The translations under genes and the position numbers were made by a program. This document shows positions 52,779 through 62,078 of a stretch of 64,000 bases of DNA, in pieces. The first letter of the stretch is position 1. Each line of letters opens with the position of its first letter. Origin of the DNA: Macrostomum lignano (Eukaryota); contig NIVC01000110.1 of NCBI GenBank assembly GCA_002269645.1, forward strand, positions 124,001 through 188,000, given 5' to 3'. The notes beneath the pieces were generated by a model. That model was not told the origin of the DNA and made no database searches. It saw only the letters and a program-made list of their open reading frames with translations.

Positions 52779-53047
52779 TTATAAGTGAGTGAATCAGGAG
52801 CCAGGATTCTAGCGGAATTAACTGAAATTGCCTCAGCCATTCACGGTTGTGAGGGGACCTAAAATTAAAGCGTCCCCACAATTAGAGGGTCGCAGGAGTT
52901 TGGTGCCCCCGGATCCCGGATCCTCAGTTTTGGCGCCTGAGGCGAGGTTATTCATTCTTGGATTCAGTTTGGATTCAAGAAGGAACAATCAAACAAAAAA
53001 TTACACTTGTGAGTATTCAAAATTGCAACTAATTAATTTGACTTGGG

Positions 53048-53724
53048 ACTACTATATGAACCCGTATCCGTTGATTTTGCGAAGGTCCGTCGGGCTGATG
53101 TCGGCCTCTAGCACCGCGGCAAGGTGCTCCCTCGGGGTGTACCACCTCCCCCGGGGTGTACCTCCAGCGGGGTGGGCGTCCAGCAAGTGTACCTCCAGCG
53201 GGGTGGGCCTCCCGCGAGTGTACATCCGGCCGGGTGGGCGTCCAGCGAGTGTACCTTCAGCGCATGGGCCTCCCTCGGGGTGTACATCCGGCGGGGGGAT
53301 TCCCGCCCCTCCCACCAATGTCGTGTGCACGCGGTTAGTGTAGGAAGGAAACCCCCGATGCTGACGCAGCCCTGTACACTGAGCAACCGGCCCCCCATGC
53401 GGGGGACAGAGAGCAGCCCTGTAGCTGGGGACAGAGAGCAGCCCCTGTAGCAGGAGGGGTAGTGCGTGGAGAGCCGCCATCCCCCTGTAGCAGGGGACAG
53501 ATAACAGGCGACCCCTGTAGCAGTATGAGGTGGGGTACAAAGAGACACGGGGTGCTGGGACAGAGAGTGCGTGGAGGCACCCTGCGCTGCCCTGGCATGT
53601 CGCAGCACGCGGCGTGGACAGAGAGGGAGTGTGAGTCACACCCCCCGCGGAGAGAGCGGCCCAGTCTGGAGGCGTGGGACAGACCGGCGGCGAGTGATAG
53701 AGAGCTCCCCAGGCTGCAGAGGAC
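53048..53724. repeat. Left terminal inverted repeat
   Basis: 53048-53641 matches the reverse complement of 63009-63602 (594 bp, no mismatch seen by eye); an imperfect extension runs to about 53724. Confidence 0.95.
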
Positions 53725-53804
53725 TTGAAAAGAAAAAAACACGTATTTTAGTTGTTTCAGGTTCAGGCCATCCGGCAAACAGAGCAAAGCTCTCCAACAG
53801 TGTT

Positions 53805-54434
53805 TTATTTAGCATAAACTACGGGGTAGCGCCCCAACACATTAGCATAGTAGCGAACAGATGCGTTCTGCAAGCAATTAACAATCAAGTAGGAGTAGGG
53901 CTCCCTAGTGGCGTCTTCGTACATTTGAACAAAACTTTTTGGGTTAGCGGGGACAAGCTGCTTTGCAATATGGGCGACTGTACTAACGTCCCGTACATTG
54001 CGGAACAATACAAGGTAGTTTGCGTTAAGGGATTGAGTGCGGTGCTCCTTGCCCTTGGCAAACAGGTTTTGTACAAGGTACCAAAGCCGGAATCCCACAT
54101 GGCTGACTTTGCGAGTGAAAAATGCGGTAAAAGCAGCGTTTTTTTCCATGGCTTGCATTTGATCATCGACAACGAGTAGAATATTCGGAGCGGGAACATA
54201 GGTTTCAGGGTTAAATGTAGACGAGCGAAAATTGACAGGGTACGGTAATTCAAACAGTTCCGGGTCTGGATAGTGCCCAAACCAATCAACGCGAACAGGC
54301 TTAGGGTCCTGAAAAAACTCGTTTCGCAGCAATTCTTTAACAAGAGTTGTTTTTCCGCTCTGGTTAACACCAGCAAAAATCGCCGAAGTATTTGGAGCAA
54401 ACTTTAGAGCGTCAGGATCAATTGTTTGGTACAT
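53805..54434 (-). CDS. A32/FtsK-like DNA packaging ATPase
   Basis: Walker A GVNQSGKT, Walker B LLVVDD, and SH..LWYLVQNLF typical of Polinton ATPases. First ATG at 54434; the frame is open to 54458. Confidence 0.92.
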   Translation of the reverse strand: MYQTIDPDALKFAPNTSAIFAGVNQSGKTTLVKELLRNEFFQDPKPVRVDWFGHYPDPELFELPYPVNFRSSTFNPETYVPAPNILLVVDDQMQAMEKNAAFTAFFTRKVSHVGFRLWYLVQNLFAKGKEHRTQSLNANYLVLFRNVRDVSTVAHIAKQLVPANPKSFVQMYEDATREPYSYLIVNCLQNASVRYYANVLGRYPVVYAK

Positions 54435-54468
54435 TTTCAGGGCGAGTTGACACTCCAAATATTAAAAA

Positions 54469-54906
54469 CTATTTTATTTGTAGAACATGTTTTCGAACCA
54501 TCAAATCATTTTCAAGCAGATTGGTAGAGTAACATTCCCTTAAAATCTTTTCAATCGACAACCCCTCTAAAAAGTGCTTTTCGGCCACAAAAATCACATG
54601 CGGCCCACACGCTACACTTAGAGGGTGTTGAACAGGGTGACGATTCATAGCAACAGGTGAATGTACATGCATCGAGATCCAAGCCGAGAGCAATTCCGGC
54701 ACGGGTTCAATACACAGGGGGTCAAAAAATGTCACACTCTTATCATCGTGTAGGCAAATCAGTCCCCAGTGGGTGCCTGGCAGATTACCCGTGTCAAAAT
54801 TAATTACATATGCAGCAGGGTAAACAGGTGCAGGAATTCTGTCGAGAGGGCAAACGTGCACTTCCACAGGTAGTTTTAAACGCTCCAAAATTTCCAACGT
54901 GTTCAT
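54469..54906 (-). CDS. Adenain-like cysteine maturation protease
   Basis: GTHW, FFDP and Q..S..CG give the His-Asp-Cys triad with oxyanion Gln. Confidence 0.92.
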   Translation of the reverse strand: MNTLEILERLKLPVEVHVCPLDRIPAPVYPAAYVINFDTGNLPGTHWGLICLHDDKSVTFFDPLCIEPVPELLSAWISMHVHSPVAMNRHPVQHPLSVACGPHVIFVAEKHFLEGLSIEKILRECYSTNLLENDLMVRKHVLQIK

Positions 54907-56184
54907 ACGTAGTCCAGAATGGGCTGGCGGCCTCTAGTGATTTGCACCGCGTTGTCAAAGTAACCAAACACCAAAACGTTAATCCCGGCAGGTAGGGCTG
55001 CAGAAAACTTTATCTGTAGGGTCAGATTCCCTCTCTCGCGAGGCATGCTATGTCCACCCAGTTCCATGTCGGGCATTAGATTCCACGCAAATAAGCAGTA
55101 ACCGGCGCGATAATCCGAATATGACAGGTCAATGTCCAAATCGCGATTCATTTTCCCTAGGCTCTTAAACAGCATGGCGTACTCGCGAGCATAGTTTTGG
55201 GCAGCGAACCTTGGAGTGAATGGTTGACCGCACAGACTGACACCGTCCTTGTACAGGGCCACACTGTCAGCCCCAAATGGCTCGAAATTGAACGGATTAT
55301 GGGTAGCCACCCCGTTATATGCGGCACTATTTACCATCCCATAATGACAAGTTTAGGCTTCTGCTCCGGGAAAATATTATTGATTGACACGTCGCGAACT
55401 CCTACAGCGACAGAGGTGTTGTGTACAACGAGGCGCTCGATGGGGTAGACTGCATTCTGAGTTGCCAGCTGTTCTTCAATCTCCAAGGCCAGTTGGGGGT
55501 TAGCCTTTACCCGACGAACGTGTAATTTTGCATTTGAAGAACCAACTTTGCATCAACCCCTTCGGCGTGATTCTCTACAACGAATCCCGAATTTTGCAGA
55601 GTGAGCGTAACCACCATATCAGTGTAGGGTAGCAGCATACGATCGTTGGTGACAAAAAAGTCGAGACTAAGAGGGCCATACAGGTGAAATGTTCGAGAAC
55701 CGGCAGCCATCGCCTTGCGAGTTACAAAGCCAGGATTTCCAACCGCAGCCATTTGACCCCCAGCGTCTTTAGCGTAGCCCATCATCCGCAGTTGGTTAGA
55801 CTTTGAATCAGACCCATAACTCAAGCATGTACGAATGTACGCCTTGTAGGCGTGGTTGTTGTTGCTAGACTCGATATGTGTACCATTTATGGAAAGAGAC
55901 ACGTTTTTGAACATGGTCTCCAAGAGGTAATTGATTGGCGCCACGTTTGAATCCGCCGCCAAATCGGCTCCATTAGCTCTCTTAATACAACCTTTAATCT
56001 CGAGATCAATGTCATTAAGATCGACAAACGTCTCGCCGCCCACAATTCTAAACTCGACCACACTCGCATTTTCGACGCTGGCAACCGGGTGGATTTCTTC
56101 AGTAGTTGAACCTACAGCGGCAATCTGGTGGGCTCGAGGGGCAAAGAGCTCAAACTCGGACTTTGTACACAGACACTCGGACAT
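54903..56184 (-). CDS. Double jelly-roll major capsid protein (Polinton PY/hexon-like), two apparent frameshifts
   Basis: Begins MSECLCTKSEFELF; contains YNG...NPFNF, GYCLFAWNL and GNLTLQIKF. Adding one base at the runs near 55537 and 55338 restores a single frame of about 427 aa. Confidence 0.88.
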
Positions 56185-56213
56185 GTTTAGTAGACAGACT
56201 CGATTCGGCGAAT

Positions 56214-56558
56214 CTAATTGAAGCGGGGCTTTTTATTTATAGTGCTGAAAATGTCTGAATTGAGACGCTTCGGAGCCTTTTTTCTTCTTCGTCCGCTACC
56301 CCTTTGGGTAACCGTGTCTTTAAAGGCGTCCTTGGCAGCCTGAACAGAATTGCGCAGGACAGACTCTTTCAAATTGCCTCCTTGCTCGAGGCTATCGTTA
56401 ACAGTAGTTGCTAGGGCTCTAGTACCATGACGGAGAACGTTTTTACCAAAACTCTTTAGAATTGGCAACGCGAAGCGGGCAATGCTTCCAAACAAACCGT
56501 TGCCCCTCTGGGCGCCCGCGAAAACAGGCAAAGCTCCACCAATCAGAATAGAAGGCAT
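56214..56558 (-). CDS. Small basic core protein (pVII-like Polinton protein)
   Basis: QRGNGLFGSIARFALPILK amphipathic segment and QRGSGRRRKK basic tail; the Q-x-G-x-G motifs resemble adenain cleavage sites. Confidence 0.7.
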   Translation of the reverse strand: MPSILIGGALPVFAGAQRGNGLFGSIARFALPILKSFGKNVLRHGTRALATTVNDSLEQGGNLKESVLRNSVQAAKDAFKDTVTQRGSGRRRKKAPKRLNSDIFSTINKKPRFN

Positions 56559-56601
56559 GATTAAGCACTAGGATATAGTTTACTGAGGCTGTGCTGTTTA
56601 T

Positions 56602-57740
56602 TTATAGCTTCTTTTCGCGGATGTTAACGCTCAAGACGGTCTTGCCCCTCATTACTTTTGTCATATCCCTGCCCATATCATCGTTAATTTGTACTTCAAT
56701 AGTTTTGAATGGGTGCTTAACCAGTGGTAGATATGCCGGATTGACAAACTCGTAGTACTCGCGACCGCCCTGAACTTTGGGATCCATCGGTATAGCTCCC
56801 AACAGAGGAACTTTAACGTCTCCTACAATAACAGAATCGACTATGCTCGAATAGATGTACATTGTTTGTATTCCACCGGTTAATTCCATTGATGCGTTTG
56901 CGTAGAAATCCGATATACCGAAAAATGGGGTTGTATAATCATGCTCTGGGAAACCAAGCACGCTGGTCAAGCGCCCCAGCCCAAACATGTAATCCGTCGA
57001 GCCAATGTAATAACACCTATTCGTAACTTCGCTGTATCTGAAAAAGTCCGTTCTAGGTGCTGGAGCCGCTATGAGATCTTTGATATGTTTCCAAATTATA
57101 TCGTTGAGTTCCTCCACCAATCTTTTAGGTGTACTATAGTATCCTCCCTGCATAAAAAGATTTGATCAGACGCTGCGCTAGTAACTTGTCTTATTATTGG
57201 AGCATGGTCCATTGACTGTACAGTCGGTTCCTCAACAACTGCGGTGATGGAGGCTGCACACCCCGCGTGTAATACGAGTTCAGTAGGTAGATCCTCATTA
57301 GACTCGAAGCCGGCGACTAGTTTAAACACCTTGGGTAGGGTATCCGGGAATTTGATGCCGACGGTGGATTTTGAAGTATTCACAATCATAAAGGCGGTTG
57401 GGGATGTTCTTAAAAAGACAATTTTCTTATTATCCCCTTCAACGTATCGGATACCGTTTAGAAAGCCGGAAATACATTCTTCAGGGGTTTTCAGACCCGC
57501 TGCGAGACAAAGGTTTGCAAACGACGAAGCCGTCAAGAGGCCCTCCTGTTCGCGAATGGTGATCGGTATAGATTTTTTGAAAGATTCAAATTCTTTGGTA
57601 AAGTAGATCCGTTCGAGGCAAACCTCATGATTCGGAAAGTGGAGAGTGTCCGGTAAATTAATAAAATAATGAGCCGGATTATTTTCGGGATAGTGCTCGG
57701 GGCACGCATTGCTAGGCAGAAAGAGATGCATGGTAGCCAT
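56602..57740 (-). CDS. Minor capsid protein (penton, Polinton PX), one apparent frameshift
   Basis: N-terminal LFLPSN...YP.N....INLP; C-terminal MYIYSSIV...VGDVKVPLL...Y.P......IEVQI.DD.G. The two ORFs join if one base is added at about 57154-57163. Confidence 0.85.
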
Positions 57741-57743
57741 GCA

Positions 57744-58820
57744 TTAGTTATTATTACGTTGACGTATATTTATAACTTCATTTACAGGTACAAATGAATT
57801 AAAAGTGTCGGGATAACCGCGCCAGCTAACGTAATGGTGCGCAACACCATTTATTAACACGTTTCTACGCAAAACTTTATTGATTACAAAACGCTCGGGT
57901 CGGGTAGATTTGGACAGTTCATTGTAGTAAAACCGTCCCTCAATCACTTCACCAGACAAATCAGAAATACGATAAAAATGTGGGGGTCCAGGACAAACTT
58001 TGGATATAATGTACACCTCCTCACTATACATGTCGTACGCCTCCTTGTCGAATGCCCGCGAGATTTCGAAATTCTCACAAAATCCCCCTTTTTATATACG
58101 GGTCGTCTTTTTGCTGATCCGGGTAGAGCTTTTCCCACACACGCTTCTGATTGTGGAACCCTACACTTGACGGTTTCATCTCAATAGTAGAATGCGTCGT
58201 GTTGTTGTAATTACCTACCAAATTGGTAAGTAGTCAACCCAACGCCACGTGTTGTTGTGCTCAAAGTAGCGAGCCAGACGCTTTCGAAGAGTTCTAATCA
58301 GCCTCTCGGCCATGTTTGCCTTGTACACAGAGTTGGTGCTGTACATTTTAACATTATTGTCTTTTAGTATGCGGCGCATTCGCTGATTATAAAACTCGGT
58401 ACCCCGATCCACGTGCAGGTAAAGGGGGCGGGCAGGGAAATCATTCGCCAACATTGACTCAAACGCTGCGGGGGTATCACTCTTTAGTTTAATTGCCCTA
58501 CAAAAAGCCTGCTTACTAAGCACATCAATAACAACTAGTATATATTTATGTCCGTCATTCCAACGTTTGTATCGCGACATGTCCATCAAATCGGCTTGTA
58601 GAGTTTCCATGAATCCTCCCGACATTACTTTTCCCGTTTTAAATGTCCTGTTGACTCTCCGGTGACGGGTGTAACTCGGTTGGGTTTCTAGCCATTCCCT
58701 GGTTTGGCGTCTTGTCAGGTTTGGCGCCAGACGTTTGGCCTCCTGATAGACACGGGCAGCATTTGAAAAAGCGGCGGCTCCTTGTTCGTAAACTCGACGA
58801 AGAGCGGTTAGAGCCCTCAT
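57744..58820 (-). CDS. Retroviral-like (rve) integrase with C-terminal chromodomain-like region, three apparent frameshifts
   Basis: DDE motifs QADL / VDRGTEF / AERL; YILVVIDVLSK; downstream KKGDFVRISK and G.FY..EL; VSWRGYP..FNSFV. Single-base losses at about 58223, 58121 and 58055. Confidence 0.9.
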
Positions 58821-58997
58821 TGACAACAAGTGTGGATGCGCAGCATGAATAGTTGCACGTAATGTCGGCTGGGGAGTTGTCTACACAAAGCTTTGACGCG
58901 GCTGCTGCTGCGCCCATGACCGCCGGGCGCGCGGTTATGTTTGGACTAGGGTTCTATTTATAAAGAGTCACGTATTTTTTCTTTTTCTCGGGTGGTC

Positions 58998-59579
58998 TTA
59001 GTTGGTAATCGTGATATTTACCCACCCGGTACCTTGATCGACAAGTTTGGGCATAGCATTTACACCTTTGTTGCGCGTGGTCGTTAAATCGCGGGTGTCT
59101 GTCGCAATTGTGTGCTCATATTCATCGCGGTAATCGTCGGTACCAACCATATGGTCAACCTTCTTTTCCTCCACAGGGAGCTGTTTCCGACCGAGCATAG
59201 ACATTGGTATACGGGCCTTGTCTAGCAGAGCCCAGAAAGCGGTCGAATATTTCGGGTGATTATTAGTGTTGGTGGTGACGGCTTGTAGAAGATCAAAAAC
59301 GTTGCTGCCACCCCAAGTTTCACCATCAAAAACGACTTCCCACGATTGGTTGTAATTTAGGCTGGGGTGCTTTTCTGTTAGTATATTCCATATACGTTGT
59401 TGCCTATCAGAAAATAGCTGCTTTGTCGTCTTTTGGGGTTTTACTTTAGCCAATTGGGTCTGTAGCTTTGCATTGTACTCTACAAGTTTTTCGTACTCCG
59501 ATTTTGGGGCAATTTCTCGCGGAGTACCCTGTCTAAGCTGATTGAATTCCTCCTCGGGGACCACAACGTACTTGTCCAT
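58998..59579 (-). CDS. Conserved Polinton-type hypothetical protein (193 aa)
   Basis: YVVVP N-terminus, coiled-coil segment, and a W.VVFDG...GGSNVFDLL motif resembling a recurrent Polinton protein; family not assigned. Confidence 0.6.
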   Translation of the reverse strand: MDKYVVVPEEEFNQLRQGTPREIAPKSEYEKLVEYNAKLQTQLAKVKPQKTTKQLFSDRQQRIWNILTEKHPSLNYNQSWEVVFDGETWGGSNVFDLLQAVTTNTNNHPKYSTAFWALLDKARIPMSMLGRKQLPVEEKKVDHMVGTDDYRDEYEHTIATDTRDLTTTRNKGVNAMPKLVDQGTGWVNITITN

Positions 59580-59581
59580 TT

Positions 59582-59971
59582 TCAACGTCGTTGTCCTAGC
59601 AGACCACCAAACAGTCCAGTGATTAACGGTGCAGCAATCTTGGCGAGAATTGGTAGGAATCCTCCAACTTGAGGGTCCGATAGTATCATATTCTTCTTCC
59701 TATTTATAGACAGTTTTTTGTCGGCCATGTCATGCAGGGCTTCTCTATAACGTTTCAACCTTGCAAACTGTCTAGGGGATAGATCGATATTGCCCTTGAG
59801 TACATTGTGGCTTAACTCGCACAGACACTGCATCAACTCATTATCGGCTCCCCTAATAATGGCCCTCCTTCGATGTGGTCGCGCGTCACCGAGCTCCTCT
59901 AGCTCGCGACGGCAAGAACAAAGACGAGAAATTCCGTTTGTCATTATTAAGGTGGTAAGCATTGCGTGCAT
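59582..59971 (-). CDS. Small protein with C-terminal amphipathic helix (pVI/Cah-like)
   Basis: C.CE...NVLKGN..L core and QVGGFLPILAKIAAPLITGLFGGLL tail, typical of Polinton/adintovirus membrane-active proteins. Confidence 0.7.
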   Translation of the reverse strand: MHAMLTTLIMTNGISRLCSCRRELEELGDARPHRRRAIIRGADNELMQCLCELSHNVLKGNIDLSPRQFARLKRYREALHDMADKKLSINRKKNMILSDPQVGGFLPILAKIAAPLITGLFGGLLGQRR

Positions 59972-60009
59972 ACATGTGCATATTTTGTTTATTTATAAGC
60001 AAAGCATAA

Positions 60010-60528
60010 TTAGAGTTGCAGAATAGCAGTCACGTGGTCGTACATTTTACACAGTTCGTCATAGTTTCGTATTCCTAGGAACACTAACCGACCATTCTTT
60101 CCGCACAGCAGGCACTTGGCCTTGCGGAATGGGGACTTTATTACAAGCCCATTGAATACCTCACTCTCCCACTCAACCCAGCGCGAGCTCGAGTTGGCAA
60201 GGCGGAAAAAGTTTGGCTTAACATTAACTTCTGCACGATAAGTACCGGTAGTGATAACAACAGAGTTTGGTTTACATTGAGCAAAAAGACGCAGCACATC
60301 GTTGGTTGATTGGCAACCAAAAACAATGGCAGATAATGAACGTTTGAAAAAGTTTATTGTACACTTTCCGATCCTCAGGTTGTACAATGCCCGGGGTCTA
60401 TGAAACGTTCTAGCGCGCGCCCAGTCCAAGTTCGGTAGGTGGTTCCACCTTGCGCAAAACACCCTGTTTACGCACACGACGTTCTGCAAGCGGTTTTTTC
60501 GGTTGCTTTTGTTTCCGCTCAGCTCCAC
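60010..60528 (-). CDS. TATA-binding-protein-like ORF
   Basis: LQNVVC at the start resembles TBP LQNIVS. The C-terminal repeat EWESEVFNGLVIKSPFRKAKCLLCGKNGRLVFLGIRNYDELCKMYDHVTAIL resembles TBP [34 protein letters not shown]...IYPIL. No in-frame ATG precedes the domain. Confidence 0.6.
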   Translation of the reverse strand: MELSGNKSNRKNRLQNVVCVNRVFCARWNHLPNLDWARARTFHRPRALYNLRIGKCTINFFKRSLSAIVFGCQSTNDVLRLFAQCKPNSVVITTGTYRAEVNVKPNFFRLANSSSRWVEWESEVFNGLVIKSPFRKAKCLLCGKNGRLVFLGIRNYDELCKMYDHVTAILQL

Positions 60529-61090
60529 CAGCTCCGCGCTTGCGTCCTACCTTGATTTTTAACGGTGGAATCCAGTAGCAGCGGTCAAACGCCTGCTTGG
60601 GAGCTTCTATGAATTGCAGTTGTTGAATTTTCGGCACCGCGGTTAGAACCGAGTCGTGAATCACCGCCGTGTCTAGGGCGAACAGTACTCTATAGTAGCC
60701 CGTCTTGTTCTTGTAGTCGGTGCACAACTTGCCGCTCTTGTCGTACATTTTAAAGTCGTGAGCCAATCCGAATGCAGCGCTGTCGCAGCCAAAAGTGGGG
60801 TTGTACCCCAATAGCGCCATTCCTTGGATAGAGAGCTGGTGACACACGGAATTGAACGCTTCTGGTATGCAGCTCTCCAAGTGCTTTTGGGAAAGAATGA
60901 TGAATTCGCGGCCTTCATTGTCGGTTCTCACACCCTTGACAATCAGTACGGGCGTCGCATTGGCAAGATAGAGAGGGCCCTGTTCGTCGTACTCAATGTC
61001 GTACGTCTCGGTTCCGTTGTAGCTTGGACCTCTCGACTTGAGAGAGAATAGGTCGATCCTAACACTATTGTAGTCTTGAACGGTATCCAT
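60410..61090 (-). CDS. Hypothetical protein (226 aa from ATG 61090), beta-rich, basic C-terminal tail
   Basis: Intact ORF preceded by TATATAAG; no recognisable family. Confidence 0.65.
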   Translation of the reverse strand: MDTVQDYNSVRIDLFSLKSRGPSYNGTETYDIEYDEQGPLYLANATPVLIVKGVRTDNEGREFIILSQKHLESCIPEAFNSVCHQLSIQGMALLGYNPTFGCDSAAFGLAHDFKMYDKSGKLCTDYKNKTGYYRVLFALDTAVIHDSVLTAVPKIQQLQFIEAPKQAFDRCYWIPPLKIKVGRKRGAGGAERKQKQPKKPLAERRVRKQGVLRKVEPPTELGLGAR

Positions 61091-61178
61091 GTTGCTGCTG
61101 CTGCTGAGAGTGGGTCTCGCTCCTGAGCGCCTCCTTATATACCCTTGGCGCGGAGGGTGGGGTGGCTGGGCGTTTTTG

Positions 61179-61694
61179 TTATAGTCCTTCTTTAACGACA
61201 CTTTCCGGTGTTGGAAATCCGGAAAAAATAAACCTTTTGTTTCGATCTTCTGGTCGAGGGGTTTGAGGCGTGTCGTGAATGCAGCTGCAGTGAGGGTTGA
61301 TAGTCAACTTCGCTAGCACTGGTCTACTGTGTTTAGGTCGCCAAATCCTTTGGTGTTCCGTCCACGAGGGAGCAATCGGCTGGTGATTCCGGTACCGTAT
61401 TTTCTCACGATGATCCTCTTGTAATATTGGGGCAATTATCTGCTCCATTCTTTGAAGATTGGCTTTGAAATGCATCTTGTCTCTAAAGTAGTAGTCAATT
61501 CGGGCATCTGTATATTCTTGGGTGCTGTAAGGCCCTTGCCCAATTTCGTCTACCTCGACATTAAAGGTGACTAATCGTTCGGGAATTGGTTTGCCGTGAC
61601 AAATGCATAACCAGTCTGTGGACTTTTTCAGGGTCTCGTACTCTGCCCTTTCTTTGCTCGATAAAAGCGGGTAGTCTCGAGAAATCCAGCTCAT
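61179..61694 (-). CDS. Hypothetical protein (171 aa)
   Basis: Intact ATG-initiated ORF whose start overlaps the stop of the upstream ORF (ATGA). Confidence 0.65.
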   Translation of the reverse strand: MSWISRDYPLLSSKERAEYETLKKSTDWLCICHGKPIPERLVTFNVEVDEIGQGPYSTQEYTDARIDYYFRDKMHFKANLQRMEQIIAPILQEDHREKIRYRNHQPIAPSWTEHQRIWRPKHSRPVLAKLTINPHCSCIHDTPQTPRPEDRNKRFIFSGFPTPESVVKEGL

Positions 61695-62044
61695 TCCTCT
61701 GACTCGTCAGATTCGTCGAGAAAGAAATAGTGGAAGAAATTGTCGACTCTATTCTTTTCAACTGCACAAAGTATTTTGTCTGACAGGTGAAATTCGCAGT
61801 CTCCTTTTACGTACAGGCGCTTCCCGTCGATAACTTTGATAGATGCGCCGCCTCCGAGATCGTAATCTGTGCAGCTAGTGTCCAGAAATTTCATTCGATG
61901 CCATTGTGCTCGACTAAACACGGCTCCTGGACAGCTACAGTTTTGACAGTGGATGCGGAAACGCGGTTTGTTTGGGTCCCAATATCCCACTTCCAGCACT
62001 GCGTTGTCAACGTGGGTGTACACTATTTCCGATTGCCAGTACAT
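61691..62044 (-). CDS. Hypothetical protein, possible PC4-like ssDNA-binding fold
   Basis: GAVFSRAQWHRMKFLD resembles PC4 GISLNPEQWSQLKEQI; acidic C-terminus; TATAAATA lies 32 nt upstream of ATG 62044. Confidence 0.5.
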   Translation of the reverse strand: MYWQSEIVYTHVDNAVLEVGYWDPNKPRFRIHCQNCSCPGAVFSRAQWHRMKFLDTSCTDYDLGGGASIKVIDGKRLYVKGDCEFHLSDKILCAVEKNRVDNFFHYFFLDESDESEE

Positions 62045-62078
62045 TTCGATATTGTTGAGAAATACCAATTTTATTTAT

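Follow-up and report, generated by a model that had tools for sequence, protein, structure and literature searches.

Analysis of a 64,000-nt window of the Macrostomum lignano genome (contig NIVC01000110.1) revealed a Polinton-like element with a gene for a TBP-like protein that is conserved, bears the signature of purifying selection, and has no start codon of its own (Table 1). We propose, at about an even chance, that inefficient cis-splicing attaches this frame, as a second exon, to the gene upstream of it and so yields a 337-aa fusion protein. TBP-like genes have been recorded before in relatives of Polintons. What is new is the missing start: neither a start-less nor a spliced TBP of Polintons was found in the titles and abstract openings searched, and supplements and repeat databases may hold such elements. 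Database gene callers assigned the relatives of this gene a TTG or an internal Met as a start; the Met of database protein P0001, for instance, is a TTG. Annotations treat Polintons and their kin as simple rows of ORFs, and the control of their transcription is poorly understood. If a TBP-fold gene under selection requires splicing, it represents a hidden layer that ORF callers overlook, and it would give access to the gene regulation of Polintons in an animal tractable for transgenesis.

Table 1. Features of the Polinton-like element and of its TBP-like gene (window positions).
Feature	Position	Strand	Basis and remarks
Polinton-like element	53048..63602	- (all genes)	10.6 kb; 6-bp target duplication, TIRs, ORF map, rve and Fic matches
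Left terminal inverted repeat (TIR)	53047..53641		595 nt, 100% complementary to right arm
Right terminal inverted repeat	63009..63603		complement of left arm
Fic-domain ORF	62079..62849	-	PF02661, E 7e-14
TATA-like box	61135..61141	-	motif scan; 51 nt ahead of upstream ORF, putative function
Upstream ORF, 226 aa	60410..61090	-	conserved domain to residue 181, then Lys-rich tail overlapping TBP frame; eight-family alignment
Predicted coding exon 1	60551..61090	-	180 codons ending I-K; homology ends at I-K-V
Candidate GT-AG intron (outron end if trans-spliced)	60484..60550	-	67 nt; AAG/GTAGG donor-like, YTNCAG acceptor-like
TBP-like exon	60010..60483	-	157 codons and stop, both TBP repeats; Pfam, PDB, Atlas, AlphaFold2, dN/dS
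Overlapping TATA-like box and AATAAA	59988..59997	-	3' of TBP stop; motif scan, putative function
rve integrase with chromo-like end, split in window copy	57744..58820	-	PF00665, E 6.5e-10; Chromo, E 0.054
Virion-type module: penton-like, basic core, major-capsid-like, cysteine protease, packaging ATPase	53805..57740	-	ORFs

The open frame at 60546-60010 on the minus strand comprises 178 codons, with the earliest ATG only at codon 168. The preliminary description had noted this absence of an ATG before LQNVV as well as an overlap with the tail of the upstream ORF, and both observations hold, the latter ORF running from 61090 to its stop at 60410. In Pfam, PF00352 matched the frame with an E-value of 9.5e-5 at 22.6 bits (gathering cut-off 22.9); its database relatives P0002 and P0001 scored 24.6 and 18.1 bits, and the protein of a second element family (family 2) gave no PF00352 match at E 0.05. 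TBPs accounted for 18 of the 19 sequence matches in PDB, and TBP clusters for 29 of the 30 matches in the ESM Atlas (top match 0.95). The AlphaFold2 model (pLDDT 82), which is biased toward TBP by the host TBP rows in the alignment supplied to it, matched TBPs with Z-scores of 14.3, 14.0, 13.7, and 13.1 (aligned length 157-161 residues, rmsd 3.4-3.5); these included the archaeal, yeast, and human proteins, and the best non-TBP row reached 7.1. The two half-repeats recognised in the preliminary description, which had named a TBP-fold match as its check, are thus predicted by the model to form a complete two-repeat TBP saddle. The protein shares with cellular TBP and TRF2 this full saddle fold, the LQN-V-V-C first strand, and the acidic C-terminal stirrup, but differs in its low identity (~20%) and in helix 2 of repeat 1, which is ~12 residues shorter. 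By alignment to the host TBP, it retains two of the four intercalating, DNA-kinking Phe and one of the two Asn of canonical TATA-binding TBP; because only these are retained, TATA binding by the protein is uncertain. Both Glu of the E-x-E stirrup, presumably the TFIIB-binding element, are invariant in all ten aligned rows. Two AATAAA motifs lie inside the TBP exon, at 60358 (50 nt past the upstream stop) and at 60142, of which only the latter is also present in family 2.

The genome contains numerous copies of the element. A DNA search gave 47 matches; eight of these, the window copy included, were 100% identical over 1301 nt, indicating that family 1, to which the window copy belongs, spread recently, and the element is recently active. 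Family 2 has ~73-75% DNA identity to family 1, and a protein search of the genome gave 92 matches. Our copy survey covered 53 loci (30 of family 1 and 23 of family 2) and did not include L037-L039 and L086-L088, which are incomplete or decayed. The TBP frame had no in-frame ATG in 52 of them, and the remaining locus has a 66-nt spacer through which both ORFs read in one frame, with an error in a homopolymer as the probable cause. In independent runs, short-read contigs crossed the TBP/upstream-ORF junction gap-free and with no indel, and the same contigs do differ from the window copy where its capsid, penton, and integrase frames are split. A sequencing error at the TBP start was rejected on the agreement of 52 copies and these contigs. 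Comparison of the TBP frames of families 1 and 2 (one pair) gave a dN of 0.14, a dS of ~2, and a dN/dS of ~0.07, resembling the values for the other genes of the element. By this measure the frame is under purifying selection and therefore must be translated, and since the selected protein has no ATG of its own, something must supply its start. The split frames elsewhere in the window copy, the single read-through locus, and a TBP exon that is shortened in 16 of 53 copies (full-length in 37) might be taken to mean that the frame is dead or was created by the assembly. However, such a reading is hardly credible, being largely refuted by the selection and by the conservation of the start-less arrangement, which extends to the eight families described below.

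The element has a 6-bp target duplication on both sides. Its ends (53048 and 63602) read ACTACT...AGTAGT, the reverse of Polinton termini, which have AGT first. The integrase is one open frame in family 2. In the virion-type module, Pfam matches were weak and none exceeded the cut-off, although the expected motifs and order are present; the gene names given in Table 1 are our presumptive assignments from motifs and gene order. The capsid-like, penton-like, and integrase frames (54903-59699), split in the window copy, are open in family 2 copies, and the splits are likely copy-specific or assembly-specific. According to the ORF map and Pfam, there is no ORF for a protein-primed PolB (pPolB) between the TIRs, nor in the family 2 copies. 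The assignment to a Polinton-like element made in the preliminary description is borne out by the TIRs, the target duplication, and the rve integrase, with the qualification that pPolB is missing. The element shares the TIRs, the 6-bp duplication, the rve integrase with a chromo-like end, and a putative virion-type module with Polintons/Mavericks and adintoviruses (Starrett et al., PMC8502044; Buck et al., PMC11071296). In contrast to these, the present element is 10.6 kb long, lacks pPolB, and carries a TBP-like gene without a start codon; adintoviruses are defined, in the available portion of the latter report, by a PolB that bears an OTU-like domain at its N terminus (PMC11071296).

A TATA-like box was found 34-142 nt upstream of 8 of the 12 ATG-bearing genes of the element. 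After the box at 61141, the next match to the same pattern in the motif scan occurs only at 59997; 4 of the 12 ATG-bearing genes also have no such box, so the TBP frame is not alone in lacking one. At four positions (62083, 59997, 56606, and 56241), a single motif doubles as TATA box and AATAAA at a gene boundary, where it may serve as a compact end-and-start signal. The ORF at 61691-62044, which had no Pfam match, showed a weak likeness to PC4 as encoded by the larger Polintons (32 aa aligned pairwise, E 0.001), and together with the TBP-like gene it could form a small transcription module.

The upstream protein had no match in Pfam, the PDB profile search, or the Atlas, and its predicted model reached a pLDDT of 39. 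We aligned the proteins of families 1 and 2 with six database relatives (38-55% identity); two long repeat proteins, P0011 and P0012, were also among the matches. In all eight families, homology stops at an invariant I179-K180-V181, and the next residue varies (G, G, R, C, C, R, R, and N). The six distant relatives continue after I-K-V with R, C, C, R, R, or N, a variable tail, and the motif [LIP]-[AS]-E, followed by the TBP frame out of phase, and the overlap of the upstream tail with the TBP frame is retained in all of them. Several nucleotide features can be deduced from these proteins. Val is the sole residue whose codons begin with GT, so V181 supplies the GT of a candidate donor; the codons of G, R, and C share a G that places G at the donor position +5 in seven of the eight families; and, in the overlapping frame, [LIP]-[AS]-E fits a YTNCAG acceptor and makes an ATG at the L-Q position impossible in all eight. 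A fused upstream-TBP protein (124-396 aa) was absent among the four protein-database matches, and no related contigs were found in viral or metagenome collections.

At the nucleotide level, the GT at 60550 and the AG at 60484 are both in phase 0, so that removal of the 67-nt segment would fuse the two frames, as first pointed out in the preliminary description. The AAG/GTAGG donor-like site is present in phase 0 in all 53 copies and the CTTGCAG acceptor-like site in phase 0 in 51, the two copies with an altered acceptor both having broken TBP exons. Families 1 and 2 are identical over 15 nt at the donor and 14 nt at the acceptor, with synonymous sites near saturation. The Lys-rich spacer between these sites measures 67 nt in family 1 but 195-206 nt in family 2, and the two versions do not align. 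The identical stretches at the splice-like sites are not unique in this respect, as the same 1.5 kb holds two 26-nt and three other 15-nt exact runs. Of the two longer runs, which persist despite the saturated synonymous sites, one (60765-60740) lies inside the upstream ORF, where an internal promoter is possible, and the other (59712-59687) contains the TATA box of the next gene.

Spacer lengths deduced for the eight families are 64, 67, 67, 67, 70, 85, 187, and ~197 nt, the minimum thus being 64 nt; 16 sampled host CCT introns measure 196-730 nt, and a predicted host intron of 77 nt exists. Host donors carry G at +5 in 15 of 16 predicted cases, a count favoured by the donor calls having been scored partly on consensus. 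The pyrimidine fraction at the acceptor is 0.35 in family 1 and 0.45 in family 2, versus 0.45-0.80 (median 0.65) in the 16 predicted host acceptors, which agrees with the weak pyrimidine tract noticed earlier, and no clear branch point was found in the candidate intron. None of the 53 loci was an intron-less copy, and none was apparent by eye in the match coordinates of the genome search. Four contig sets, one from an unlabelled run and three from runs presumed to be RNA (none of them recorded as such), covered the whole element evenly and passed through the junction in unspliced form, and neither a joint nor a loose end was listed at 60483; these contigs may derive from DNA or host pre-mRNA, rare forms are dropped from them, and we do not weigh them as evidence.

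We favour cis-splicing because the donor and acceptor ends are exact between families that cannot be aligned in the spacer, because homology stops at I-K-V and the following residues are unrelated, yet +5 G is kept in seven of eight families, and because I-K fills both positions missing from strand 1, which in the model starts at L-Q, two residues ahead of the acceptor. Against this reading, I-K-V could be conserved as a protein constraint, and one of the eight relatives has no +5 G. The weak acceptor, the missing branch point, the greater length of the sampled CCT introns, the exact runs elsewhere in the region, the stop-free 3n+1 spacer, and the absence of a fused protein among the matches likewise speak against it. 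In the scheme that we infer, transcription from the TATA box at 61141 would produce one RNA, from which two proteins are made. Left unspliced, it would encode the 226-aa upstream protein with its basic tail; the spacer is stop-free and of length 3n+1 in seven of eight families, suggesting that the unspliced tail is kept as coding sequence. The host spliceosome would remove the weak intron, probably in a minority of transcripts, and the spliced RNA would encode the fusion of the upstream domain, a Pro-rich linker, and the complete TBP saddle. With I-K at the end of exon 1, strand 1 of the TBP saddle would then open with these two residues instead of L-Q, and I-K followed by N-V at the predicted junction resembles the K-I-Q-N of host TBP repeat 2. 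The fusion would likely be an element-specific promoter factor for the TATA-type promoters of the element that recruits host TFIIB and Pol II. Such a role appears to be the likeliest function of the TBP-like protein; a decoy of host TFIIB is possible.

The start may alternatively come from the host spliced leader, a route that had been missed in the preliminary description, where splicing was placed first. The leader ends in AUG and would join the TBP acceptor in frame (phase 0), and trans-splicing at this acceptor, if it were the main route, would give a stand-alone 158-aa TBP-like protein. That the host is Macrostomum is borne out by a 98%-identical protein with this label in UniRef and by the published end of the leader, which matches the genome exactly at 61 sites; 9 of 12 fetched loci are SL RNA genes reading ATG/GTAAG. 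The TBP acceptor fits YTNCAG, the top host SL-acceptor motif (9551 of 21754 sites), which occurs in just 3 of the 16 predicted host cis acceptors; such hexamers are, however, frequent by chance. The other Polinton TBP-like proteins of this genome stand alone, with a Met 8-11 residues before the first Asn. Start codons donated by the leader are documented in Schistosoma in the available part of a report (PMC9851317), and the genes concerned (Cheng et al., 2006, as cited there) share with the present one the AUG-ending leader, the in-frame acceptor, and the lack of their own ATG. Those are host genes, whereas here the gene belongs to a mobile element and has a competing cis donor. By a rule cited in the accessible text of another report (PMC8629364), cis-splicing should be preferred where, as here, a conserved donor lies 67 nt upstream; under the leader model this donor-like site would have no purpose, and in the structural model Met alone leaves one position of strand 1 unfilled. 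We therefore regard trans-splicing as unlikely to be the main route. Flatworm acceptors are often common to cis- and trans-splicing, as stated in the portion available of a further study (PMC12582326), and both routes may run. It is a tentative possibility, well short of even, that one weak acceptor yields either the domain-TBP fusion in cis or a stand-alone TBP with the leader AUG, with the splicing state of the host switching the programme of the element; if true, a virus-derived element would have relinquished the start codon of its TBP-like factor and would rely on the AUG of the host leader to have this gene translated. As a separate observation, genomic inserts at L091, L092, L114, L115, and L119 start with the spliced leader followed by a shared short start and are apparently retro-copies of one trans-spliced RNA family.

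Initiation at a near-cognate codon, UUG at 60489 (CUG in one relative), by way of an internal promoter, leaky scanning, or reinitiation is rather improbable. It would produce M-Q-N-V-V and complete strand 1 in the model, TTG-CAG is found in both families and deducible in P0001 and P0004, and an NUG is compatible with seven of the eight families. On the other hand, position -3 is a pyrimidine in both families, compared with a purine in 9 of 11 scored ATGs of the element; five ATGs precede the codon on the transcript; and the motif scan gave no internal TATA match ahead of the TBP frame. Furthermore, the overlapping I-S-E of P0006 cannot encode NUG, yet its partner P0002 (taken as the same contig) is an intact TBP. 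Downstream in-frame Met codons of the TBP frame were rejected as starts, as their positions differ between families and strand 1 would be truncated. Programmed ribosomal frameshifting in the A-rich spacer, which would fuse both frames, is very improbable. The overlapping open frames, the A-runs, and the prevailing 3n+1 spacer length accord with it, and it has been proposed for adintovirus genes in the part available of PMC11071296. However, family 2 spacers are 3n+2 in 13 of 23 copies, 3n+1 in 9, and 3n in 1, so that family 1 needs a +1 shift and most family 2 copies a -1 shift, and conservation is confined to the two ends of an otherwise unconserved spacer. The earlier view of a captured transcription factor expressed by splicing, frameshifting, or a non-AUG start is thus partly supported, in its fold, its start-less frame, and the GT-AG segment as lead route, and disfavoured in its other two routes.

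A search of the genome for the TBP family gave 150 matches, mostly intronless multicopy frames. Those multicopy genes that were examined sit in Polinton-type elements, several beside pPolB, and each has its own ATG. TBP-like genes, which the preliminary description did not know as standard Polinton genes, are thus no novelty among these viruses; TBP also appears among the accessory genes of some MELD viruses in the figure legends of Starrett et al. (PMC8502044), an adintovirus paper that in its available text contains no mention of splicing. The TBP-like genes of the pPolB Polintons (L055, L096, L098, and L102) are likewise intronless and overlapped by the tail of an upstream ORF in another frame, but have their own ATG and a different upstream gene, and in the profile-profile comparison they match the start-less protein with an E-value of 2e-5 at ~20% identity. 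The overlap in these pPolB families (G000, e.g. L055-L069 and L095-L106) extends over ~330 nt. Only cellular TBPs were present among the 120 matches listed in a profile search with the other TBP-like proteins. In a tree built without archaeal or large-virus outgroup rows, eight element TBP-like proteins fall on one side of a branch (support 89/85) with very long branches, and on these sequences their common origin is neither shown nor rejected. The presence of two very different TBP-like lineages in the elements of one host suggests that a promoter factor of their own has been repeatedly useful.

Divergent TBP domains that serve virus-specific promoters have other precedents, such as herpesvirus vTBP, where the domain lies inside a larger viral protein. 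The poxvirus proteins VETF-l and VITF-3 likewise have such domains, that of VETF-l within a larger protein, as reported in the portion available of PMC12917281. All three differ from the present gene in belonging to large viruses and being encoded by ordinary ORFs, and poxviruses use their own RNA polymerase. The model of the TBP-like protein matched the vaccinia chain 8p0j_H weakly (Z 5.3). Within the host genome, Polinton-type ORFs adjoin yet another TBP-like gene (L107:4389-4982), the third and a distant one, which starts with an ATG of its own; one pPolB-bearing Polinton with a TBP-like gene also encodes PC4, and the host TBP and TRF2-like genes (L040 and L046) are intronless in their core.
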